Counted from the stretch's first letter, positions 1,225-46,005 are shown. The stretch is DNA of 64,000 nt from Alphaproteobacteria bacterium (GCA_017444525.1 JAFSWL010000022.1:73879-137878); one strand, 5' to 3'. A program made the numbers and translations. The notes: generated by a model not told the origin, from the letters alone.

Positions 1225-3180
1225 ATGAAAGCCATACGCTTTTTTGCAGTCTTTATCATCGGTTTGTTGCTGATTGCAATATTGAGTCGCTCTTTATGGT
1301 ATGTTGCACCGATTAAGTTTCCGCTCGAATTCGTTATTGATGCGGTAAAGTTTGATATTTTATGCATTATCGTCGGTTTTTATGTTTTATTCTGGGGAAT
1401 CGTTGCTATCATTTATTTGGCACGACACAAAATTTATAATAAATTATCCGCACAAAAATCCTTACATAGCTATATGTTTATATTGCCCTATGCCAAACCG
1501 TATTGGATCCGCACCTTATTGGCCATTGTTATTACCATACCTATTGGCACTATGGACGCAGTTATTGCTTGGTCTCTCAAACCTTTTATGGATGTAGTTT
1601 TGATAGAAAAACAAACCGGTTGGACAATGTATATTCCGCTGATGATTGTGGTTTTCAGCATTTTGCAGGCAGTTTTCACTTATATTGCAACTTATCTGAA
1701 TACTTGGGTAGGAAGCCGAATATCTTTGGATTTAAAGCGCAAGCTGTTCAATACTTTACTGCATCGCGATGCTACTTTTTTTGATAAAAACAATTCCGGA
1801 TTTGTCTTGATGCGTTTCAATCAAGATGCCGAATCGGCATGCGGCGGCCTCTTAAACAGTATGCGTCTGTTTTCAACGCGTTTCTTTTCTTCATTATCGC
1901 TCTTGGTTGTGCTTTTTTATAACTCATGGAAATTAGCTATTGTAGCAACTATCGTGTTATTCGGAGCATTGATGCCGCTGACAAAAGTCAAAAAGAGGCT
2001 CAATGCTGTGGTTTCCAAAGATACGGATTTGATGGCAAAAATTTATCGCGATTACAATGAAATTTTCAGTGGTAATCGTATCGTTACCGCCTATAATTTA
2101 TTTGATTTTTGTAAGAAGAAATTTACAAACAATATAAATAACGCCTTTGATATGACTCTACAGATGAAGAAGAAAACCGGAATAATTTCTCCGTTGATGC
2201 ACGTCATATCTTCATTCGGCATCGCCTTTGTTATATGGTTCGGTAGTTATTTAATAGTTTCTCATCAAATTACCGTCGGTAATTTTGCCTCGTTTGTTAC
2301 CTCACTTGTAATGTTGTACAATCCGCTCAAATCCATCGGTAACAATGCAAGTAATATCGCTGTTTCTTTAATGGCTGTAGACCGTGTGTCAGATCAATTG
2401 AGCGCTGTCGATAAAATCAAAAACAAACCTGATGCCGTGGAGCTGAAAAAATGCCGCGGTGAAATCAGTTACAAAGATGTTTCTTTTGCCTACGTTAAAA
2501 ATAAACCGGTTTTACGCCATATTAATCTTGAGATAAAATCCGGAGAAACCATTGCATTGGTAGGTAATTCCGGCGGAGGAAAATCGACCATTTCCGTATT
2601 GTTGCCGCGTTTTTATGATGTTACCGCAGGTTCCATAACAATCGATAATATTGATATACGTAATATCCGATTAACTGATTTGCGTGATAATATCTCTATT
2701 GTATTTCAGGATAATTTCCTATTCGGCGGCACAATCAGAGAAAATATTTTACTTGGTCGTACCGATGTATCGGAAGAACGATTGAATGAGGTGATTAAGG
2801 CGGCATGTCTGGACGAGTTTATCGACTCTTTGGATAATGGTTTGGATACCGAAATCGGGGAGCGCGGTGTTCTAGTTTCGGGCGGACAAAAGCAGCGAAT
2901 CGCCATCGCGCGTGCGTTTATAAAAAATGCGCCGATTCTGATTTTGGATGAGGCTACGTCGGCGCTTGATAACAAATCGGAAAAAATCGTGCAGCAAGCA
3001 ATTGATAATTTGATGAAAAACCGCACCGTGTTGGTTATAGCACACAGGCTTTCTACGGTTCGCAATGCCGATTGTATTGCCGTGATTAACAACGGAGAAA
3101 TTGTTGAACGCGGCACTCATGAAGAGCTGTTGGCCAAGGGCGGAGAATATGCCGCACTTTATAAAACACAATTGAGCTAA
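1225..3180 (+). CDS. MsbA-like ABC exporter with fused permease and ATPase domains, and an N-terminal membrane extension
   Basis: Hydrophobic segments are followed by a Walker A motif GNSGGGKST, an ABC signature LSGGQKQRIAIARA and a Walker B motif [12 protein letters not shown]. Confidence 0.8.
   Translation: MKAIRFFAVFIIGLLLIAILSRSLWYVAPIKFPLEFVIDAVKFDILCIIVGFYVLFWGIVAIIYLARHKIYNKLSAQKSLHSYMFILPYAKPYWIRTLLAIVITIPIGTMDAVIAWSLKPFMDVVLIEKQTGWTMYIPLMIVVFSILQAVFTYIATYLNTWVGSRISLDLKRKLFNTLLHRDATFFDKNNSGFVLMRFNQDAESACGGLLNSMRLFSTRFFSSLSLLVVLFYNSWKLAIVATIVLFGALMPLTKVKKRLNAVVSKDTDLMAKIYRDYNEIFSGNRIVTAYNLFDFCKKKFTNNINNAFDMTLQMKKKTGIISPLMHVISSFGIAFVIWFGSYLIVSHQITVGNFASFVTSLVMLYNPLKSIGNNASNIAVSLMAVDRVSDQLSAVDKIKNKPDAVELKKCRGEISYKDVSFAYVKNKPVLRHINLEIKSGETIALVGNSGGGKSTISVLLPRFYDVTAGSITIDNIDIRNIRLTDLRDNISIVFQDNFLFGGTIRENILLGRTDVSEERLNEVIKAACLDEFIDSLDNGLDTEIGERGVLVSGGQKQRIAIARAFIKNAPILILDEATSALDNKSEKIVQQAIDNLMKNRTVLVIAHRLSTVRNADCIAVINNGEIVERGTHEELLAKGGEYAALYKTQLS
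2921..3180 (+). repeat. direct repeat copy 1: the 3' end of the ABC gene, duplicated at 6905-7165
   Basis: About 260 bp are near-identical to 6905-7165. The central roughly 140 bp are identical and the 3' tail has diverged. Confidence 0.8.
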
Positions 3181-3273
3181 AATTCACAATTTTTATATAT
3201 AAATAATAACTTGATTCGACGATTTATTTTGCCTTTTTTAGTTAAGACAAAATAAAAATTTTTCGGATATATA

Positions 3274-3302
3274 TTGACAAATTGGATAAAATATTTTATA
3301 CT
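3274..3302 (+). promoter_or_regulatory. near-consensus sigma70 promoter
   Basis: The sequence is TTGACA, a 17-nt spacer, then TATACT, lying upstream of the truncated surface-protein paralog. Confidence 0.4.
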
Positions 3303-3335
3303 GACCTTGTCATTAACAAATATGGAGGCAAAAAA

Positions 3336-3638
3336 ATGAGTGATGACCCCCACCCCTGTATGAAGGTGACGAGCCACATTCGCAATCTTATTAAAATGTC
3401 CGCCACGGCGGTTCATATTCAGGAACAAAACGTTTCGCTGATTTTTTCTGATGATAACAATTCATCAAATTTAATTCTGAATGCGGAAAATATTGCCGCG
3501 AAAAATCTTAATCATAATCAAAAACTTTCTTTCGATGATTTAAGACCGTATCTGCTTGCGCCTAAAAATTCGGTGCAACACTTGCGCTTGGTTATCAATA
3601 AATACGGTGTTTGTACTCGTAGATTTTCGAACAATTGA
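3336..3638 (+). pseudogene. truncated N-terminal paralog of the two downstream surface-protein genes
   Basis: It shares the RBS and the N-terminus MSDDPHPC with the gene at 3739. It aligns over about 90 aa (NAENIAA versus GAENISA, and FDDLRPYL versus YNDLRPNL) and then terminates. Confidence 0.5.
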
Positions 3639-3738
3639 AAATCGCGACAAATCGGCAATGCTCCGATAACCACAGATTACTGATTAAGATAGGAATTATG
3701 TTTTTGGATTAACATTATCATTCACATAGGAGGAAAAA

Positions 3739-4734
3739 ATGAGTGATGACCCCCACCCCTGTACGCAGGATAATAATTTTGACTTATGCAAACTTATATT
3801 GAAAACTTTGCTTTTAACCGCGACTACCGCGGCTTTTGCTCAGGAACAAAAAGTTCCGACAATTAAATCCGATGTCCGTTCGGACAGACTGACTTTGACG
3901 CTCGGCGCGGAAAATATCTCCGCCTTGACCATCGAACAAGATAAAACCGTATTCTACAACGATTTAAGACCGAATCTGACGGCGCGTGCCTGCAACAGGC
4001 GCGGCGATTACGCACAGCTTAAGGCGATGGAAGTCTTAATTCTGGAAGATAAAAACTTTACCCCGATTACTTCTAAATTTATGCTGGAACTCGGTAAACT
4101 GACCGGCAACGGCGGCACCGTTATTTTCAAGGCCGGCCGCGAAAAAACCGAAGGTGCGACCCTGTTTGACCACGCCCTCGAATATTATGCCGACTCCCGC
4201 GATGCCTATCAATTTGCCAACAGCGCGGAAAGATTGGTTTTCGGATATCAGAAAAATAATAAATTCATCGAGCTAGGTATTATCGGCAAAAACGGCGACG
4301 GATTTTTCGTTATACCGAATCCGAAACACGCAGATTTTTGGGCTAAAAGCGGTTTAACCCTCTTGGGAAAGAGCGGTGTTAGACTCAATGTAACCGGAGC
4401 AATGCGCTTCGGCAGCAAACACAAGCATTTACTGAGTTCCATCGGCATATCCGAGCGTTCCGGTTTCGGTATCAGAATGTTGGGTAATTATGATTTTGCC
4501 GAAAAGAAAGGCAATCTCGGATTGCGTGTATGGAAAGATTTTATGCACGGCTGGAAAATGATTACCGAAGCAGTATTCGATCAAAACCGCGATTTATATA
4601 TTCGCAACGGAGCTAACAAAGGCAGAGTGCAATTTTCCATAGAATACGGTAAACCGAAAAACCGGTCGAATTACTTTAATTTTACCGTTGCAGCCAATCT
4701 TGCAAGATCGCACATCGTGAGCGGCACCAAATAA
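3739..4734 (+). CDS. putative secreted or outer-membrane protein, paralog A, unknown family
   Basis: A strong RBS AGGAGG precedes it. A charged N-terminal extension of about 25 aa is followed by a hydrophobic region LLLTATTAAFA and then QEQ. It is about 45% identical to the next gene. Confidence 0.6.
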   Translation: MSDDPHPCTQDNNFDLCKLILKTLLLTATTAAFAQEQKVPTIKSDVRSDRLTLTLGAENISALTIEQDKTVFYNDLRPNLTARACNRRGDYAQLKAMEVLILEDKNFTPITSKFMLELGKLTGNGGTVIFKAGREKTEGATLFDHALEYYADSRDAYQFANSAERLVFGYQKNNKFIELGIIGKNGDGFFVIPNPKHADFWAKSGLTLLGKSGVRLNVTGAMRFGSKHKHLLSSIGISERSGFGIRMLGNYDFAEKKGNLGLRVWKDFMHGWKMITEAVFDQNRDLYIRNGANKGRVQFSIEYGKPKNRSNYFNFTVAANLARSHIVSGTK

Positions 4735-4765
4735 CTTATGCAATTTTATCAATATAGGAAAAAAA

Positions 4766-5758
4766 ATGACTGATACTTTAAACTTAAAAAACAATGATTT
4801 TCAACTTTTCAACGTTCGTAACTTTGTTATCAACACTCTGTTGCTGACGGCTACGGCGGCGGTTGCTCAGGAACAACAGATTACGCAAACAAATTCCGAT
4901 GATACCAAGGATCGGATGACCTTAGTTCTTGACGCAGCTAATATTGCTGGTTTGACTGTGGAAGAAGGAAAAACCACTTTCTATAATGACTTTGCTCCGT
5001 CATTTTTGGCGAGAGCCGAAAACAAACGCGGTGATTATGCCCAACTTTCCGGTCAAGAAGGCGTTATCTACAATAACGATTCATTCAAATCCTTAACCAT
5101 TAAGTTTATGGTTGAACTGGGTAAACAACTCGGCAATGGCGGCGTGATTACCTTCAAAACCGGTCGTGCCGCTACCGAAGCTGGAGCCGTATTTGATAAT
5201 CCGCTCAGTTATTATGCTGATGCTTATGATATCGGTCGTTTCGGTAATGCCAGCGACCGTATCGTTTTCGGCTACGAAAAAGGTGGACAATTTATTGAGC
5301 TCGGTATGATAGGCAGTGCCGGCGACGGCTTCTACGTTATACCGAATCCGAACAAATCAGATTTTTGGGCTAAGTGCGGCTTGACCCTCTTGGAAAAAAG
5401 CGGTGTCAGACTGGATATGACCGCCGCGGTGCGTACCGGTAGCAAACATCGCCAGTTGCTCAGTTCCATCGGTATTCATAGTCGTGCTTACGGCGGTACG
5501 ATTTTCGGTCATTACGATGCCAAACAGCATTGCGGCAACTTGGGCGCACGCGCTTGGTACGACTTGCGCCGCGGCTGGAAAACCATTGCCGAATCGGTAA
5601 TCACACAAAATCGTGATTTGTCGGTACGTGCCGGTGTCGGCAAAGGCGGAATGCAGTTTTCGCTGGAAATTTCCAAACCGCGCGAGCAACCGGTTGCCGT
5701 AAACTTTACGGTGGCCAGCAATTTGGCGCGTTCTCATACTATATGCGGTCACAAATAA
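4766..5758 (+). CDS. putative secreted or outer-membrane protein, paralog B
   Basis: It has the same architecture and is colinear with 3739-4734. Shared motifs include GDYAQL, FYVIPNP..DFWAK.GLTLL and NFTVA.NLARSH. Confidence 0.6.
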   Translation: MTDTLNLKNNDFQLFNVRNFVINTLLLTATAAVAQEQQITQTNSDDTKDRMTLVLDAANIAGLTVEEGKTTFYNDFAPSFLARAENKRGDYAQLSGQEGVIYNNDSFKSLTIKFMVELGKQLGNGGVITFKTGRAATEAGAVFDNPLSYYADAYDIGRFGNASDRIVFGYEKGGQFIELGMIGSAGDGFYVIPNPNKSDFWAKCGLTLLEKSGVRLDMTAAVRTGSKHRQLLSSIGIHSRAYGGTIFGHYDAKQHCGNLGARAWYDLRRGWKTIAESVITQNRDLSVRAGVGKGGMQFSLEISKPREQPVAVNFTVASNLARSHTICGHK

Positions 5759-5777
5759 TAATTTAAGGGGTAAAATC

Positions 5778-6041
5778 ATGTTAGAAAATTTGAAAAACAA
5801 ACTCATTCAAAGTGCAATCGTCGTCAGCGGTTTATTTACCGTCGGTACGGCACTGTCAAGCTGTGATGAGCTTAAATCACCGCAGCAAAAAGGTAAGGAA
5901 TTGGTGCAAAAGCGCAACCCGACAGCCGACTCAATTAAGGCCGCACCATATAAAATATGTCGGTACGAGAGGAATATGCCGAGCGCCGTACAGATTCTGC
6001 CAAAATCAAACTGTTACGAGAAAAGTATCAGTTTCGGCTGA
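5778..6041 (+). CDS. lipoprotein signal peptide and N-terminal segment; possibly the 5' part of a frameshifted gene continuing in 5957-6877
   Basis: An RBS AAGGGG precedes it and it has a lipobox LSSC. Its frame overlaps the next ORF by 85 nt. Confidence 0.35.
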   Translation: MLENLKNKLIQSAIVVSGLFTVGTALSSCDELKSPQQKGKELVQKRNPTADSIKAAPYKICRYERNMPSAVQILPKSNCYEKSISFG

Positions 6042-6877
6042 CGCAATATCAGCAAGCTCTCGACAGCTTGAAACAAATGCAACAGACGGTTGATGCCGAG
6101 TTATTGCAGGCGGCAGCTTGCGGCGACTTGGATGGCGTTAAAACCGCACTTGAAAACGGTGCAAATGTCAACGCTCAAGGCGAAAAATCCGGCAACACCG
6201 CCTTGATGAACGCAATTGAGCATTGTTCCGACACGCAAAAAGCCTTTGATGTTGCCATGTATTTGTTGGGCGAGTCGAGCATTCGTACCCAAATTGAAAA
6301 CAAACGCGGTATCAGCGCCGTAGATTTACTTAAAGCCAAACTCAACAGCGGTGAGGCCGAATGGGAAACGATTGCCCGCAAATTCGGCGAGCCGACGACC
6401 GACAATTCGCGCCAACGCGGCAATTCCGAAGTGGATAAATTTGCGGCTGAAGTTAAGCAAACTTATAAACAACTGGTCGAAAGCTACGGCAAGGAAATGC
6501 GTGCCGCTTTGGGTTACGTTTACATGGGTAAAGATGTTCACCAAAACGAAAAAGGCGAGCAAATTTACTTTATCGGCGGCTATGGTGACGAATATCCTTG
6601 CGGAGTTGAAATTACCACCAATGAAGACGGCAGCAAAGACACCACGGCGGTCAATCCTTATGCCGTGCATCCGACGGTTAAGGCAAAACTATTGTTGCGC
6701 GAGCCGCATGAAAAGTATTTGGTACCGGAAGAAATCGGCACGCAAGTCGTGCATAAAAGTCGGCGCAAAGGTTACGGTATCGGCCATCGCTATCACAAAA
6801 CGGTTATCGATACATACACCGTAACCACAACCCGCGACGGCCAGCAACACTGGGTAAAAACTCGTGAAGGCCGGTAA
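5957..6877 (+). CDS. ankyrin-repeat protein with a coiled-coil N-terminus and a C-terminal domain of unknown function
   Basis: It contains ANK-like repeats LLQAAACGDLDGVKTALENGANVNAQ...GNTALMNAIEH. The frame opens only at 5951, immediately after a TAA stop. Confidence 0.6.
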   Translation: MSVREEYAERRTDSAKIKLLREKYQFRLTQYQQALDSLKQMQQTVDAELLQAAACGDLDGVKTALENGANVNAQGEKSGNTALMNAIEHCSDTQKAFDVAMYLLGESSIRTQIENKRGISAVDLLKAKLNSGEAEWETIARKFGEPTTDNSRQRGNSEVDKFAAEVKQTYKQLVESYGKEMRAALGYVYMGKDVHQNEKGEQIYFIGGYGDEYPCGVEITTNEDGSKDTTAVNPYAVHPTVKAKLLLREPHEKYLVPEEIGTQVVHKSRRKGYGIGHRYHKTVIDTYTVTTTRDGQQHWVKTREGR

Positions 6878-6904
6878 TTATTTTGTTGCTTATTAACACA
6901 CCCT

Positions 6905-7165
6905 AAAAAAAATGCACCGATTCTGATTTTGGACGAGGCTACGTCGGCGCTTGATAACAAATCGGAAAAAATCGTGCAGCAAGCAATTGATAATTTGATG
7001 AAAAACCGCACCGTGTTGGTTATAGCACACAGGCTTTCTACAGTTCGCAATGCCGATTGTATTGCCGTGATTAACAACGGAGAAATTGTTGAGCGCGGTA
7101 CCCATGAGGAACTACTCGCCAAAGACGGCGAATATGCCGCGCTTTACAAAACTCAAATAGCTTAA
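6905..7165 (+). pseudogene. orphan duplicate of the ABC exporter 3' end, forming direct repeat copy 2
   Basis: It translates to [40 protein letters not shown]..., matching the C-terminus of the 1225-3180 product. It has no N-terminal part and no RBS. Confidence 0.65.
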
Positions 7166-12541: not shown

Positions 12542-12625
12542 AATTCAAACATATAAAAAAAGCTAAAAAATGCAAGTCTAAAATTTTTGCTTGCCCTTTT
12601 ATTGCAAATTGTTTAGTATAATCTT

Positions 12626-12775
12626 GCAGGCAAGAGATTGTCTGCGGAGTGTCGAAGCTCCCAAGAAGAAAATAGCTCCTCATTGGTGGGGAGCCGGCGG
12701 AATATATTGAATACGCCGGACTGACTTCTTGCAGTTTCGAACTCCCGACCACTTTTTTGAGTGGTCTTTTTGTTT
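12626..12775 (+). ncRNA. structured small RNA, family copy A1
   Basis: A -10 TATAAT lies at 12617-12622. A 5' hairpin is followed by closing helix P1, variable helix P2, hairpin 2 and hairpin 3 with the invariant loop GAATATATTGAATA. An intrinsic terminator GACCAC-loop-GTGGTC plus a T-run ends it. Confidence 0.55.
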
Positions 12776-12854
12776 TAATTACAGAGTATGTAACAAAAAC
12801 ACCGCGTTAAATATTTTCGTTGCTTTTTGTTATATTTTCTGTAATATGGGAGTC

Positions 12855-13003
12855 GCAGGCAAGAGATTGTCTGCGGAGTGTCGTAGCTCCTTAAGAGAAA
12901 ATAACTCCTCTATTATGGGGAGCTGATGAATATATTGAATAAATCAGACTGTTCTCTTACAGTTACGAACTCCCCACCTTAAAGAAATTTAGGGTGGTTT
13001 TTT
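12855..13003 (+). ncRNA. structured small RNA, family copy A2
   Basis: The upstream promoter is TTGCTT, a 16-nt spacer, then TAATAT at 12830-12848. The architecture matches A1, with compensatory changes in P1, P2 and the hairpin 3 stem. The terminator is CCACC-loop-GGTGG plus a T-run. Confidence 0.55.
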
Positions 13004-13029
13004 AATATAACAAAAAGGAGTTCAAAAAT

Positions 13030-13254
13030 ATGAGTTCACATAATTTGCTTAGTAAAAAAGTTTTAACAGATATTTGTTCGCGGCTTAAACAATTGCGTCT
13101 TGAGCGTCAACTCAGCATAGAGGATTTGCAAGCCGCCACCCACCTTAAACTCAAAACATTAAAACGTATGGAAAATGGTAAGTGCTTACCTTTCAGATAT
13201 TATCGGCGTTTACTCAATTTTTACGGCAAAGAAATACGAATCGTGATTGAATAA
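13030..13254 (+). CDS. 74-aa XRE-family helix-turn-helix protein
   Basis: An AAAGGAG RBS precedes it. The HTH_XRE-like segment is LRLERQLSIEDLQAATHLKLKTLKRMENGK. It has a paralog at 16590-16814. Confidence 0.6.
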   Translation: MSSHNLLSKKVLTDICSRLKQLRLERQLSIEDLQAATHLKLKTLKRMENGKCLPFRYYRRLLNFYGKEIRIVIE

Positions 13255-13260
13255 AGCCAT

Positions 13261-16080
13261 TTATTTCAACTTGCCTTTCAGATATTTGCCGGTGAAGCTT
13301 TTTTTATTTTTCGCCACTTCCTCCGGTGTGCCTTGGGCTACAATCGTACCGCCGCCATCGCCGCCTTCCGGTCCGACATCAACAATATAATCCGCCATTT
13401 TTATCACATCGAGATTATGTTCAATCACCACTACGGTATTACCCTGTTCTACCAACATTTCCAAAACGTCAAGCAAATGTTGAATATCTTCAAAATGCAA
13501 ACCGGTTGTCGGCTCGTCTAAAATATACAAAGTTTTACCGGTGGCTTTTTTGCTAAGTTCTTTAGAGAGTTTGATGCGTTGCGCCTCGCCTCCGGAAAGT
13601 GTCGGTGCCGGCTGTCCGAGTTTAACATAACCCAAACCCACACGGCGCAATAAATCCAACCGCCGTTTTATTGCCGGAATATTCTCAAAAAACTTGTAAG
13701 CGTCGTCAATTGTCATATCCAAAACATCGGCAATCGACTTATCCTTAAATTTGATTTCAAGAGTTTCGCGGTTGTAGCGGGTACCATGGCAGGCATCGCA
13801 CGGAACATACACGTCCGGCAAAAAGTTCATCTCGATTTTCATTACGCCGTCACCTTTGCAGGCCTCGCAACGACCGCCGGCAACATTAAACGAAAAATAG
13901 CCCGAAGTATAGCCGCGCGCTTTAGCCTCCGGCAATTCGGCAAACCAATCGCGGATATTGGTAAACACACCGGTATAAGTTGCCGGATTAGAACGCGGCG
14001 TGCGCCCTATCGGCGATTGGTCAATATCAATCACCTTATCGATATTTTCCAAGCCGATGAGTTTATCATACGGCCCCGGCGGCACACGAGAGCCGTTCAT
14101 TTCTTTATCCACCGCCTTAAACAGCGTTTCTAAAATCAGCGAAGATTTACCGCTGCCGGAAATACCGGTAACACAAGTAAACGTGCCAAGCGGTATTTTT
14201 AAATCAACATTTTTCAAATTGTTGGTGCGCGCACCTTTGAGCTCCAAAAATTTACCGTTTCCCTTGCGGCGAATCGGCGGCAAGGCAATTTCTTTTTCAC
14301 CATTCAAATATTTGGCAGTGAGGCTGTTCGGATTATGCAAAACCTCGTCAACCGTGCCGGCGGCGGTAACTTCCCCGCCCAAAGTGCCGGCAAGCGGTCC
14401 CATATCCACCAGATAATCGGCGGCGCGCATGGCATCTTCATCATGTTCCACTACAATCACGGTATTGCCGATATCACGCAGACGGCGCAGACTGTCGAGA
14501 AGTTTATCATTATCGCGCTGGTGTAAACCGATGGAAGGCTCATCCAAAACGTACATCACGCCGGTTAAACCCGTACCGATTTGTGAAGCCAAGCGAATCC
14601 GTTGAGCCTCACCGCCGGAAAGAGTTCCCGACTGGCGCGACAAAGTCAGATAATCAAGCCCGACATTATTCAAAAAGCTTAATCTTTCGCGGATTTCTTT
14701 TAATATTTTGCGGGCAATTTCCTGCTTTTGCGGAGTTAATGTTGCCTCAACATTATCAAACCACTCCAACGCTTGTTTAATTGACATATTGCTGGCATCA
14801 ATAATATCTAAACCGGCAATTTTAACCGCCAAAGCCTCCTGTTTAAGCCGTTTGCCGTGGCAAACTTCACAAGGAGCGGCCGATTGATAATGCGAAAGCT
14901 CATCACGCACCGCTGCCGAATCGGTTTCCACAAAACGGCGTTCTAAATTAGGAATCACTCCTTCAAACGGTTTATCCGATACCCATTTGGAATAAACCAT
15001 CGGCACGCAGCGATTACCTGAGCCGTAGAGTATTGTTTCTTGTGCATACTCTGGCAAGTCTTTCCACGGAGTTTTGTTGGATATATCAAGATATTCACAT
15101 AAAGAATTTAAGGTCTGGCGATAAAAAATCGAATGACTGCTGACCGACCACGGGGCAATCGCTCCGCCTGCCAGACTCAGATTTTCATTCGGCACCACCA
15201 ACTCCGGATCCATATATAAACTGGCGCCCAAACCACCGCAATGCGGACAAGCCCCCTGCGGATTGTTGAACGAAAACAACCGCGGTTCAATCTCCTCGAT
15301 CGTAAATCCCGATACCGGACAGGCAAATTTAGAAGAAAACGTAGTGCGTGATTTATCACTCATATTTTCGACATACAATAAGCCGTCACTCAATTTTAAG
15401 GCGGTTTCCACCGATTGCGCCACGCGGGTTTGAATCCCCTCTTTTATCACAATGCGGTCAATTACCACTTCAATATTATGTTTAATATTTTTGTTCAAAT
15501 TCGGCAATTCTTCAATGTTATAAATCTCGCCATCTATATCTAAGCGCTGAAAGCCTTTTTTCTGCAATTCGGCAAATTCTTTTTTAAACTCGCCTTTTTT
15601 ACCTCGAGCAATCGGCGAAAGTAAAATAAGTTTTGAGCCTTGCGGGTATTCCAAAATTTTATCAACCATTTGGGTTAAAGACTGAGCTTCAATCGGCAAT
15701 CCTGTTGCCGGCGAATACGGAGTGCCGGCACGCGCCCACAGCAAACGCATGTAGTCATATATTTCCGTTATAGTACCGACCGTTGAACGCGGATTATGAG
15801 AAACAGTTTTCTGTTCAATTGAAATTGCCGGAGATAGACCCTCTATCGAATCGACATCAGGCTTATTCATCAAATCTAAAAATTGTCGGGCATAAACCGA
15901 AAGACTTTCAACATACCGACGTTGTCCTTCCGCATATATGGTATCAAATGCCAAAGAAGACTTACCCGAACCGGATAAGCCGGTAATAACCGTCAGCTTG
16001 TTTTTCGGAATATTAACATTCACGTTTTTCAAGTTGTGCTGGCGTGCGCCTTTGATTTCGATATATTTACTTTCTGCCAT
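13261..16080 (-). CDS. uvrA: excinuclease ABC subunit A
   Basis: It has two ABC ATPase modules ([10 protein letters not shown] and [10 protein letters not shown]) and zinc-finger cysteines. I moved the start to [11 protein letters not shown] at 16080, which has a GGAG RBS. Confidence 0.93.
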
Positions 16081-16181
16081 TTTTTTCTCCGTTGCGATTG
16101 ATATATACCAATTACATGCGTTTCGCAACTGTTTAATAAATAAAACTTGCTTTTTTAAGCAAACTGATTACAATGACTGTT

Positions 16182-16329
16182 GCAGATAAGAGATTGTTTG
16201 CGGAGTATCCTAACTCCTTCCATAATATATAAACTCCTCAATGGTGGGGAGCCGGTTGAATATATTGAATAGACCGGACTGTTTATGGACAGTTAGGAAC
16301 TCCCGACCACTTTTTTGAGTGGTCTTTTG
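16182..16329 (+). ncRNA. structured small RNA, family copy B1
   Basis: It has the same architecture as A1 and A2. P1 carries a C-G versus G-C swap and P2 is a new but still complementary pair UCCAUAA/UUAUGGA. The terminator GACCAC...GTGGTC is followed by a T-run. Confidence 0.55.
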
Positions 16330-16411
16330 TTTTGATTACAGAACGTCTAACAAAGGTGATACCTTAAATATTTTCGTTGCTTTTTGTTATATTTTCTGTA
16401 ATATGGGAGTC

Positions 16412-16558
16412 GCAGATAAGAGATTGTCTGCGGAGTGTCGAAGCTCTACCAATAGAAAATAACTCCTCGCTGGTGGGGAGCCGGTTGAATATATTGAATA
16501 GACCGGACTGACTATTGGCAGTTTCGAACTCCCGACCACTTTTTGAGTGGTCTTTTTG
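16412..16558 (+). ncRNA. structured small RNA, family copy B2
   Basis: Its promoter TTGCTT, a 16-nt spacer, then TAATAT is identical to that of A2. P2 is CCAAUAG/CUAUUGG. It ends in the same terminator. Confidence 0.55.
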
Positions 16559-16589
16559 TTTTGATAACTGCAAAAAGGAGTTCTGAAAA

Positions 16590-16814
16590 ATGAGTACGCA
16601 TAATCTGCTCAGCAAAGAAGTTTTAACGGAAATTTGCGCACAATTTAAACAGTTAAGAATTGAACATCAACTCAGTATCGAGGAATTGCAAATCGCCACA
16701 AACCTTAGCCTCAAAGTATTAAAACGCATGGAAAACGGCAAATGTATGCCTTTCAGATATTATCGACGTTTGCTGGAATTTTATGGTAAAAAAGCTCGAG
16801 TTGTAATTGAATAA
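16590..16814 (+). CDS. 74-aa XRE-family helix-turn-helix protein, paralog of 13030-13254
   Basis: It is about 70% identical to the product of 13030-13254 over its whole length, and it has the same RBS and the same upstream RNA pair. Confidence 0.6.
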   Translation: MSTHNLLSKEVLTEICAQFKQLRIEHQLSIEELQIATNLSLKVLKRMENGKCMPFRYYRRLLEFYGKKARVVIE

Positions 16815-17012
16815 AGTCATAAAAAAAGGCTCGGATAACGCATTTTTTTACGTCATTCTGAACGGACACTTAGTGTCATCGTGAAGAATCCATTTCGTTC
16901 CGACAGAACGAAACAACACCTGATGGCGTTGCCGGATACTTTGCCTGTCGGCTCAGTATGACGGGGAAAACAACACTTTTTTTAATCGAGCGTATTTTTA
17001 GCAGCAATCCGT

Positions 17013-31825: not shown

Positions 31826-31846
31826 TTTTCTGAAACAAATGTATAA

Positions 31847-31876
31847 AAATGCCGCTTAAATAAAGCGGCATTTTTA
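31847..31876 (+). terminator. terminator hairpin after rplQ
   Basis: The hairpin GCCGCTTTAAATAAAGCGGC is flanked by an A-run and a T-run. Confidence 0.55.
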
Positions 31877-31887
31877 ATTACTCAAGT

Positions 31888-31922
31888 AAAATCCGCAAAC
31901 AATTCTCTTGCCTGCGGATTTT
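31888..31922 (-). terminator. trxA terminator hairpin carrying the 5' hairpin module of the RNA family
   Basis: A perfect 10-bp stem AAAATCCGCA/TGCGGATTTT is present. On the minus strand the sequence reads GCAGGCAAGAGAATTGTTTGCGGA, which matches the 5' module of the A1 and B1 RNAs. Confidence 0.45.
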
Positions 31923-31956
31923 ATATCAGTACACCTGCTAAAAATTGCAAGTATTT

Positions 31957-45794: not shown

Positions 45795-46005
45795 AAAAAA
45801 GACCACTTAAAAAGCGGTCGGGGAATTCAAACAATCCTAATCAACAAGAACCGTTGCGGTTTTTAGGTATACCTTGGACATAGCCGCAACTCCCCCGACC
45901 ATATTGTCGAAGAATTTATCCCTACTTTATAGTCGGGGATTATTTAATGTTGATTAAGGGATGTTTGAAGTCCCCGAGTGATAAATCCTTCGGGTTCATC
46001 ACTCT
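45795..46005 (-). ncRNA. divergent fifth member of the structured RNA family, downstream of fba
   Basis: On the minus strand a 5' hairpin GAGTGATGAACCCGAAGGATTTATCACTC precedes P1 GGGGACUUCAAA/UUUGAAUUCCCC. P2 CUUAAUCAACA/UGUUGAUUAGG and two internal hairpins follow. The terminator GACCGC-loop-GTGGTC is followed by seven T residues. Confidence 0.4.

Follow-up and report, generated by a model that had tools for sequence, protein, structure and literature searches.

The question raised by this locus is what kind of RNA, if any, lies in front of two genes for small XRE-type helix-turn-helix (HTH) regulators in a 64,000-nucleotide (nt) stretch of DNA from Alphaproteobacteria bacterium (GCA_017444525.1 JAFSWL010000022.1:73879-137878; this whole stretch is referred to below as the window). 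A reading made from the sequence alone (the sequence-only reading) had described four units of one architecture and had proposed that they are a novel structured RNA. These units, A1, A2, B1, and B2, are about 146 nt each, all lie on the + strand, and share 79-85% column identity. The element, termed here XRE-leader RNA, is best seen as a well-supported new RNA family, an enlarged variant of the sRNA-Xcc1 kind and a candidate attenuator-type leader, and not as a new category of RNA. The units, their promoters, and the genes that they precede are the following, where bits refer to R1, the covariance model built from the four window units.

12591..12619, + strand: promoter-like site of A1 (TTGCCC, 17 nt, TAGTAT), overlapped by TATAAT at 12617-12622; fits the promoter logo of the family.
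12626..12771, + strand: unit A1; 179 bits, fold −68.7 kcal/mol, z −7.7, terminator scan.
12626-12645, H0 of A1; 12646-12659, P1 5' strand; 12662-12668, P2 5' strand.
12675-12694, hairpin 2 of A1; 12695-12718, hairpin 3 with the loop GAAUAUAUUGAAUA.
12725-12731, P2 3' strand of A1; 12733-12745, P1 3' strand; 12747-12766, terminator, with a U run.
12820..12847, + strand: promoter of A2 (TTGCTT, 16 nt, TAATAT), from the sequence and the family promoter logo.
12855..13004, + strand: unit A2; 139 bits, fold z −7.8, terminator scan.
13017..13023, + strand: Shine-Dalgarno (SD) region of XRE_A, GGAGUUC, complementary to the P1 3' strand GAACUCC, read from the sequence.
13030..13254, + strand: XRE_A, a 74-amino-acid (aa) HTH protein (Pfam HTH_31, HTH_25, HTH_3).
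16147..16174, + strand: promoter of B1 (TTGCTT, 16 nt, TACAAT), from the sequence and the family promoter logo.
16182..16329, + strand: unit B1, with P2 UCCAUAA/UUAUGGA; 160 bits, fold z −6.6.
16377..16404, + strand: promoter of B2 (TTGCTT, 16 nt, TAATAT), the same as that of A2, from the sequence and the family promoter logo.
16412..16557, + strand: unit B2, with P2 CCAAUAG/CUAUUGG; 170 bits, fold z −7.0, terminator scan.
16577..16583, + strand: SD region of XRE_B, GGAGUUC, from the sequence.
16590..16814, + strand: XRE_B, a 74-aa HTH protein (Pfam HTH_31, HTH_25, HTH_3).

P2 is CAAGAAG/CUUCUUG in A1 and UAAGAGAA/UUCUCUUA in A2, the terminator of which reads CCACCUUAAA-GAAA-UUUAGGGUGG. The next element after A1 is A2 and that after B1 is B2, with no gene directly 3' of either. 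The gene uvrA (13261-16128, − strand) lies between the two modules and is outside the RNA feature, for which the span of 12600-16820 given by the sequence-only reading was therefore too wide. The distance that it gave, 25-30 nt from the end of each pair to the ribosome-binding site (RBS), also needs correction: the terminator ends ~26-33 nt before the start codon, and the U run is ~12-19 nt from the SD. Its intrinsic terminators were all recovered, since the terminator scan scored one at the 3' end of each of the four units. The promoters of A1, A2, B1, and B2 remained below the threshold of a generic sigma-70 scan; despite this, all of them fit a promoter motif found in 113 members of the family, including the identical TTGCTT-16-TAATAT that had been noticed before A2 and B2.

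The minimum free energy (MFE) and centroid structures calculated with RNAfold coincide in one architecture in all four units, at −61 to −69 kcal/mol and z −6.6 to −7.8. None of the shuffled controls folds as well, and the reverse strand is weaker by 14-17 kcal/mol (z about −4.8). This structure, fold A, is composed of a 5' hairpin with a GAGA tetraloop (H0), a 13-bp helix P1 with one bulge, a 7-8-bp helix P2, hairpin 2 (CUCCUC/GGGGAG), hairpin 3 with its loop GAAUAUAUUGAAUA, and an intrinsic terminator, and leaves hardly any nt unpaired except those of the hairpin-3 loop. It reproduces the single architecture proposed earlier, and the sequence bears out what was claimed of the compensatory swaps in P1, the P2 sequences of the four units, and the invariant 14-nt loop.

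To define the family, one genome per species was scanned with a 21-base pattern derived from hairpin 3 and the bases that follow it, a choice which in part imposes the invariance of the hairpin-3 loop on the loci found. The scan yielded at least 116 loci, and all those listed come from metagenome-assembled genomes of uncultured gut, rumen, or fecal Alphaproteobacteria. Among the matches listed, there are at least eight copies in BRZ_MQ_bin8, at least seven in BRZ_CI_bin98, and at least six in each of UMGS63, UBA3307, and BRZ_RM_bin80. R1 recovered the listed loci at 45-177 bits. A scan of viral contigs gave a single match, inside a radical-SAM-like open reading frame (ORF), which was judged to be due to chance. 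The RNA family is absent from Rfam 15, and no description of it was found. Many unnamed structured RNAs near HTH-XRE genes are reported by Fremin & Bhatt 2021; a search of 200 of its 408 supplementary files for the motif string gave no match.

Conservation of the pairings is the strongest evidence that the RNA itself is under selection. In an alignment of 59 homologues, 95.1% of the cells are standard pairs, compared with 67% after shuffling and ~42% with slid partners; both sides have changed in 38 of the 44 pairs, and every one of the seven helices shows covariation. Because this alignment was fitted to the covariance model, P2 was also checked without any alignment, and at least 7 contiguous complementary nt were found at the expected upstream place in 106 of 126 units, compared with ~3% for swapped partners. 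The same 126 units contain 86 distinct 8-nt P2 3' strands. Relatives of B1 keep the P2 pairing with other letters, such as CGCAUAA/UUGUGCG at L005 and UCCGCAA/UUGUGGA at L006. With the pairings kept in about 120 homologues, the view of the sequence-only reading that selection acts on the pairing of P1, P2, and hairpin 3 is borne out. The homologues fall into two subfamilies: type I, which includes the window units, has the P1 strands GGAGUGUCGAAGCU / AGUUUCGAACUCC, and type II has GGUGUCUCAAAAAC / GUUUUUGAGCUCC, with CCUCCGC/GGCGGAG or CCACC/GGUGG as hairpin 2.

Between paralogues whose RNA is 90-95% identical outside P2, the identity of P2 is 0.54, that of the promoter spacer (near random) and of the upstream flank 0.42 each, and that of third codon positions 0.62, and the proteins are 67% identical. 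By this comparison of sequences, the RNA outside P2 is unusually conserved and is more constrained than the XRE protein encoded downstream. A fast-evolving P2 "barcode" under diversifying selection was considered and rejected, as the P2 identity (0.54) does not fall below the neutral range given by the flanks (0.42) and third codon positions (0.62). Being as diverged as these, P2 looks like a helix constrained for pairing only. A tie between P2 type and XRE subfamily was rejected too, the UUCUCUUA type having been found before very different proteins.

The RNA occupies a constant place in its transcription unit. When the upstream regions of 113 units were aligned at the start of H0, they gave a promoter logo with an AT-rich segment at −45 to −39, CTTGCAATTT at −36 to −27, TAATAT at −13 to −8, and a G at +1, which is the first H0 base. 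Among 122 distinct units, 100 are followed by an SD and a start codon, the latter mostly 54-67 nt past the end of P1 and ~25-40 nt past the terminator. No convincing internal promoter for the XRE gene was found by eye or by the generic scan, either inside the unit or in the spacer between terminator and SD. The fixed short distance of the start codon suggests that the XRE gene has no promoter of its own, and, as there is no room for a separate one, that it must be fed by read-through of the terminator. By promoter logo and start-codon spacing, the RNA thus lies between a promoter and a co-oriented, apparently promoterless gene, which is the position of an attenuating leader.

Where the downstream ORF is complete (n = 73), it encodes in 67 cases a small protein, mostly of 70-86 aa, of one divergent XRE family, so that the location upstream of a small XRE gene first seen in the window is kept in the homologues. 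This protein family, to which XRE_A and XRE_B belong, has 64 distinct sequences with a variable recognition helix, and searches in PHROGs and PDB gave generic HTH matches only. A Cys-rich secreted protein of ~270-320 aa takes the place of the XRE protein in 5 of the 73. Since some type II units precede this secreted protein, the leader is not exclusive to XRE genes. Type II loci before the Cys-rich signal-peptide protein (MKIK.LLLGTSLSLIP...) are L040:4255, L092:1552, L095:1247, L096:3101, L107:5690, and L119:5459, and no Pfam match was obtained for the protein (~315 aa).

Most loci consist of a single unit before a gene. XRE_A has only 10 detectable homologues, and their contigs carry a single unit directly 5' of the gene. 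Tandem units were seen twice in the window and at L053 and L078, and the second unit of a tandem pair has its own promoter. The single unit is the norm and the tandem layout the exception, and we infer that the tandem pairs of the window are local duplications, with A1 and B1 as extra upstream copies. The position of the module varies among relatives: L001, an orthologous single unit with a P2 identical to that of A2, is at the queH-uvrA site only, and L005 and L006 occupy only the site upstream of tyrS. In RUG10918 (L053), a CCAAUAG-type unit followed by a CAAGAAG-type unit stands before XRE_B, an order of unit types that suggests recombination between modules. As a separate observation, the two RNA-XRE modules of the window (12578-13260 and 16134-16820) form direct repeats of ~680 bp, 77-96% identical in parts, around uvrA, which could in principle be deleted between them.

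A second, competing structure runs through the same RNA. The possibility that the 3' strand of hairpin 2 pairs elsewhere, raised earlier as a hint of a switch, gained support from a MAFFT alignment, in which this pairing covaries family-wide. In this fold B, the hairpin-2 3' strand GGUGGGGAG pairs with CUCCCGACC, which runs from the end of P1 into the terminator stem. The resulting closing helix takes CUCC and the first 3-5 nt of the terminator 5' arm, and it encloses hairpin 3 and a second hairpin (ACUG, 8 nt, CAGU), the loop of which is the P2 3' strand. Folds A and B compete for hairpin 2, for the end of P1, and for 3-5 nt of the terminator and exclude each other there, which gives a 1:2 / 2:3 / 3:4 layout. 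The closing helix occurs in 31 distinct variants, including GGCGGAG/CUCCGCC, GGUGGAG/CUCCACC, GAGUGGAG/CUCCACUC, UAAGGGGAG/CUCCCCUUG, and UGAGGGAG/CUCCCUCA. At least 7 contiguous fold B pairs are present in 64% of the units, compared with 17% for swapped partners. In the MAFFT alignment, 5 of the 9 closing-helix pairs show double changes and 83% of the cells are paired, compared with 33-50% when slid; hairpin 3 covaries, and ACUG/CAGU is invariant. One compact RNA thus holds two conserved, mutually exclusive folds. When the 2:3 helix is enforced, the 5' arm is predicted to collapse into a local hairpin, of the form GGAG...CUCC in type I and GGUG...CACC in type II; this swap is one evolutionary event and hence weak evidence.

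Fold B also reveals the kinship of the family. At the gathering threshold, no Rfam family matches anywhere in the window. The only recurrent relaxed match is sRNA-Xcc1 (RF02221, gathering score 53), and it covers only the 3' half: it scores 32.1 bits in A1 (on 12685-12758), 27.5 bits in B2, and 25.4 bits in B1, and 33.6 and 33.1 bits in the type II units L033 and L118, all of them below the 53-bit gathering score, and genuine sRNA-Xcc1 members score 53-74.5. Other weak Rfam matches (ctRNA, snoRNAs, MIR2119, SIB) were isolated and chance-like and were set aside. In the reverse direction, a search with a model built only from the fold B core of the family put the genuine Xcc1 at the top in three of the four loci tested, with E values of 0.027, 0.11, and 0.21. 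The similarity is weak but reciprocal and is found at exact boundaries, and XRE-leader RNA is a distant, enlarged relative of sRNA-Xcc1. The earlier statement that no known RNA family fits therefore stands at the level of gathering scores and fails with regard to this distant kin.

The likeness to sRNA-Xcc1 extends along the whole of fold B. In both RNAs, the stem GG..GGGAG/CUCCC..CC closes the structure, the loop of the first hairpin reads GAAUA...(G/A)AAUA, that of the second is variable, and the joiner is UUUCGAAC(C)UCCC. The Xcc1 hallmark of a closing stem around two hairpins with a U-rich tail is accordingly present as fold B and not as the MFE fold. The Xcc1 joiner with its 3' strand, UUUCGAACCUCCCGAC, is close to UUUCGAACUCCCGAC of XRE-leader, and one Xcc1 (POCJ13 copy 2) has a terminator, CACCAC...GUGGUG, comparable to that of XRE-leader. 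Placement is common to both as well, in the order promoter, RNA, U run, 30-45 nt, SD, and a gene for a small DNA-binding protein, and tandem modules occur in both. However, XRE-leader measures 146 nt and sRNA-Xcc1 ~88 nt, and XRE-leader has an extra 5' arm of ~65 nt, which turns back onto the core and comprises H0 and the 5' strands of P1, P2, and hairpin 2. The XRE-leader +1 given by the promoter logo is at H0, ~62 nt upstream of the core, and not at the closing stem as mapped for Xcc1, and XRE-leader lacks the mini-hairpin that Xcc1 has inside its first loop. The genes downstream differ (XRE, as opposed to KilA-N, Bro-N, antirepressor, or SymE), as does the setting, chromosomal in one alphaproteobacterial clade for XRE-leader and on phages, plasmids, and integrons for Xcc1. 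A family member at L030:7737-7882 has neither H0 nor the 5' strands of P1 and P2 and is a bare Xcc1-like core before its XRE gene; it is either a natural intermediate or a decayed copy.

The main difference concerns the partner of the second-hairpin loop, which is the upstream 5' arm in XRE-leader and the downstream ribosome-binding region in Xcc1. The latter was noticed in five genuine Xcc1 members, given here with the gene that lies 30-45 nt 3'.

L123:2456-2538: Kingella potus plasmid, 56.4 bits; KilA-N.
L124:1189-1277: Vibrio phage VPBES, 61.4 bits; 80-aa protein, then a DNA-binding protein.
L125:311-395: Shigella phage POCJ13 copy 1, 53.0 bits; antirepressor.
L125:846-931: Shigella phage POCJ13 copy 2, 74.5 bits; antirepressor.
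L126:1189-1275: Pasteurella plasmid, 59.3 bits; Bro-N.

All five are co-oriented with the downstream gene, and the two POCJ13 copies are tandem modules. In each of them, the SD region of that gene has its complement in the loop of the second hairpin, with sequences that differ from case to case: the loop/SD pairs are CUUUGUA/UACAAAG, UUUUCCUUGU/ACAAGGAAAA, CUGACG/CGUCAG, CUUUUGG/CCAAAGG, and CCUUGUAC/GUACGAGG (regions L123:2456-2600, L124:1189-1320, L125:311-440 and 846-975, and L126:1189-1325). This complementarity is our own observation on five members and not a published criterion; found in five of five, it suggests that Xcc1 is a leader-encoded (cis) antisense regulator of the adjacent gene. 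Such an RNA would work like C4 of P1/P7 or IsrK. No statement of this role was found in the Xcc1 literature examined, in which Northern blots show Xcc1 as a separate RNA of 88 nt and its ends are mapped in Xcc (PMC2996969). It accompanies symE in Xanthomonas integron cassettes (10.1101/2025.06.18.660453) and an ORF6N gene in APSE phages (10.1101/2020.03.17.996009), and Xylella has five copies ~380 bp apart, with C4 and IsrK adjoining an Xcc1 copy in that genus (PMC12189769). In XRE-leader, no complement of the variable (P2) loop was seen by reading the XRE translation start region. Its loop pairs instead with the P2 5' strand, and its joiner pairs with the P1 5' strand (GGAGU.UCGAA), a sequence similar to that of the real SD region (GGAGUUC). 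The 5' arm thus appears to be a target mimic inside the RNA itself, closing an Xcc1-like core.

How such an RNA might act can be judged by comparison with known systems. Like terminator/antiterminator leaders (riboswitches and the trp, pyr, and bgl RAT systems), XRE-leader lies 5' of a gene, has a promoter of its own, and ends in an intrinsic terminator shortly upstream of the SD; all three pairings of its 1:2 / 2:3 / 3:4 layout covary, and its terminated product would be a stable small RNA. Unlike them, it has a closed fold far more stable than the alternative, its alternative helix shares no more than 3-5 nt with the terminator, and it is used at least six to eight times per genome before paralogous regulators. 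In C4, P4 CI, and IsrK, a small RNA made from the 5' portion of a transcript controls the gene further along it, as XRE-leader would. XRE-leader is like P1/P7 C4, P4 CI, and Gifsy-1 IsrK in having variable complementary segments in one transcription unit, and the genes of its Xcc1 relatives are of the antirepressor type; it differs from C4 and IsrK in having no sequence or Rfam similarity to them, in not lying in a prophage, and in that the partner of its variable segment is upstream, inside the same RNA. Of the analogies offered by the sequence-only reading, that with a riboswitch-like leader is the stronger one, and that with tandem small RNAs (sRNAs) such as PrrF and Qrr is the weaker one because the downstream gene has no room for a promoter; the tandem state is not defining.

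We see an even chance that XRE-leader is a cis-acting leader switch whose terminated form is the small RNA. Transcription would start at the first base of the capping hairpin H0. The 5' arm and the 3' half would then join through P1 and P2 around the two hairpins, giving the closed fold A, in which the terminator forms; this would be the default, ending transcription and releasing a stable RNA of ~146 nt. Some factor would shift nascent transcripts to fold B, and the weakened terminator would let RNA polymerase read into the XRE gene. This factor might be a ligand, a second RNA, or a protein, for which the XRE product and a general RNA-binding protein are candidates. The module would have originated from an Xcc1-type core that gained a 5' target-mimic arm, with the former RBS-pairing loop now pairing with this arm.

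A translational layer may be added by SD/anti-SD pairing. The anti-SD GAACUCC, held in P1 in fold A, could bind the SD region; the GGAGUUC or GGAGCU of the downstream gene is matched by a complementary P1 3' strand. The combination AACUCC with GGAGUU occurs 40 times, AGCUCC with GGAGCU 23 times, and AGCUCC with GGAGUU, which leaves a G-U pair, 11 times; the mismatching combination of AACUCC with GGAGCU does not occur. Folding of the read-through transcripts of two type II members joins the SD region to the P1 3' strand. Beyond one position, covariation between the SD and the P1 3' strand was no better than in the control.

Several observations weigh against the leader switch. The best fold with the alternative helix is less stable than fold A by 6-16 kcal/mol, which means that switching would need a factor. 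In A1, B1, and B2, a G-G mismatch caps the contiguous alternative helix at 5 bp and the terminator can still form, and the terminator of A2 loses only 3 of its 10 bp in fold B; in these structure predictions, the antiterminator effect may thus be weak in the window units themselves. The SD/P1 complementarity averages 7.0 nt, compared with 6.7 nt in the mismatched control, and its single covarying position tracks the subfamily split and may reflect shared descent. Termination and read-through are both deduced from sequence alone. Finally, A1 and B1 have no gene of their own and Xcc1 was seen as a discrete 88-nt RNA (PMC2996969), so that a purely trans-acting role is possible.

Such a role is what an alternative that we consider rather unlikely proposes, namely that the units are mainly trans-acting "sibling" sRNAs, like Qrr, PrrF, AbcR, and the cuckoo RNAs, with the XRE gene as a neighbor or co-regulated partner and not the target; the hairpin-3 loop or another exposed segment would pair with distant mRNAs or titrate a global RNA-binding protein. 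The conserved promoter and terminator of each unit, the several near-identical copies and the many copies per genome, the units without a gene directly 3' (A1, B1, and those in the tandem pairs L053 and L078), and the discrete 88-nt RNA of sRNA-Xcc1 on Northern blots (PMC2996969) agree with it, as does the conservation of the invariant 14-nt loop and of the non-P2 RNA above that of the protein, which would be expected of a common cellular partner. However, the tight 54-67-nt spacing from P1 to the start codon leaves no room for a promoter and requires read-through to feed the gene, fold A pairs nearly everything but the hairpin-3 loop, and the invariance of this loop is partly due to the search pattern. 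Sites complementary to the loop number 16 in the window (non-self, with at most 2 mismatches) where 7.9 ± 3 are expected, a marginal excess for an AT-rich motif, and none of them is tied to a start site. Equally doubtful, in our view, is an antisense control of translation in the style of Xcc1, C4, and IsrK, in which GAACUCC would block the XRE RBS, the 5' arm would be a decoy that neutralizes the repressor, and the module would be an immunity or addiction cassette for a small DNA-binding protein harmful when derepressed. The five Xcc1 loops, each complementary in its own way to an SD 30-45 nt downstream, speak for it, together with the Xcc1-linked genes (KilA-N, Bro-N, antirepressor, and, in integron cassettes, symE; 10.1101/2025.06.18.660453), the fit of the P1 3' strand to GGAGUUC or GGAGCU with the mismatching combination seen 0 times, its pairing with the SD region in the type II read-through folds, and the multi-copy modules whose positions differ between related genomes. 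Yet this complementarity is just 6-7 nt, essentially that of SD and anti-SD and no longer than in mismatched controls; the anti-SD is sequestered in the dominant fold, no complement of the variable loop was seen in the XRE start region, and there is no sign of toxicity of the XRE protein.

An element acting at the level of DNA, such as an XRE operator, a miniature inverted-repeat transposable element (MITE), or a mobile repeat like the repetitive extragenic palindromes, with the RNA structure incidental, is highly improbable. The units are multi-copy and dispersed, the module positions vary between related genomes, and the hairpin-3 loop holds the DNA palindrome AATATATT, all of which would suit it. 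However, pairing is kept through G-U intermediates, which are meaningless in duplex DNA, the + strand folds better than the − strand by 14-17 kcal/mol, covariation extends to all seven helices, and each unit is set between a promoter and a terminator at fixed places. Terminal inverted repeats or a transposase were not seen, an invariant loop contrasts with the highly variable recognition helices of the XRE proteins, and viral contigs lack members, apart from one chance match. Returning to the leader switch, we regard as improbable, though not far-fetched, that it amounts to something larger: a new class of effector-sensing leader, or an Xcc1-type antisense RNA turned into a self-closing switch, with a bolder variant in which P2 is a private address. 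As a leader class, one conserved sensor RNA could gate at least six to eight paralogous XRE regulators per genome. As a descendant of Xcc1, it could represent an antisense RNA that became a self-closing switch by gaining a 5' mimic of its own target. In the bolder variant, by analogy, P2 is free to vary and the terminated RNA could act only on nascent transcripts of its own locus. The hetero-immunity of C4 in P1 and P7 is a parallel for such locus-private RNA action.

Some further elements were observed in the family and in the window. A subset of type II units has a conserved insert of 50-135 nt in the terminator loop, GCCUGCCU...[AAAUUGGGGAGAAUG...CACAAUUU]...AGGCAGG (L051:1054, L055:2034, L078:7581, L094:104, L100:7223, L110:188, L118:4632, L122:2979, and, in a short form, L033:3338). 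The insert keeps the terminator stem and displaces the XRE start to 90-175 nt away. Its ends are imperfectly inverted, it holds hairpins of its own, and Rfam gave no match for it; a MITE and an additional RNA domain are both conceivable. In the window, a partial relative is found on the other strand.

31842..31917, − strand: family-type promoter CTTGCAATTT, an H0-like hairpin GCAGGCAAGAGAAUUGUUUGC, a short A/U linker, and a terminator; 25 bits with R1, sequence, pattern search.

The sequence-only reading had counted a fifth copy here (31896-31915, − strand), which shares only the promoter and the first hairpin. Without the core domains and without a gene, the partial relative is either a mini-RNA of ~75 nt or the remnant of a module. 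Its region (31842-31950, − strand) is 3' of trxA and convergent with rplQ, and in another genome an XRE homologue (P0010) adjoins the L17 gene. A further structured element that ends in a terminator is located at 45796-45911 (− strand), 3' of the fructose-bisphosphate aldolase gene. It has a P1-like pairing GGGGAGU.../...GAAUUCCCC, scores 21.9 bits with R1, and lies ~55 nt 5' of an SD and ATG; its terminator, GACCGC-UUUUUAA-GUGGUC, is nearly that of the type I units. In the region 2919-7156, families of direct repeats (253 nt with 93% identity at 2919 and 6904, 212 nt at 4237 and 5264, and repeats of 54 nt and 36 nt) lie just upstream of a 992-aa glycosyltransferase ORF.

To our knowledge, almost no regulatory RNAs have been characterized in the uncultured Alphaproteobacteria of gut and rumen, and the present family adds to them a large RNA family with very strong covariation. 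sRNA-Xcc1 is annotated widely in phages, plasmids, and integrons, and we know of no mechanism for it; the comparison gives it a testable function, in which its variable loop, complementary to it in five members, would act on the RBS region of the adjacent antirepressor-type gene. The two families would represent two solutions on one core, an open antisense RNA in Xcc1 and a self-closed form with two folds in XRE-leader, and may thus serve as a model for the origin of an RNA switch. If an effector of the switch exists, it would control many XRE regulators at once.

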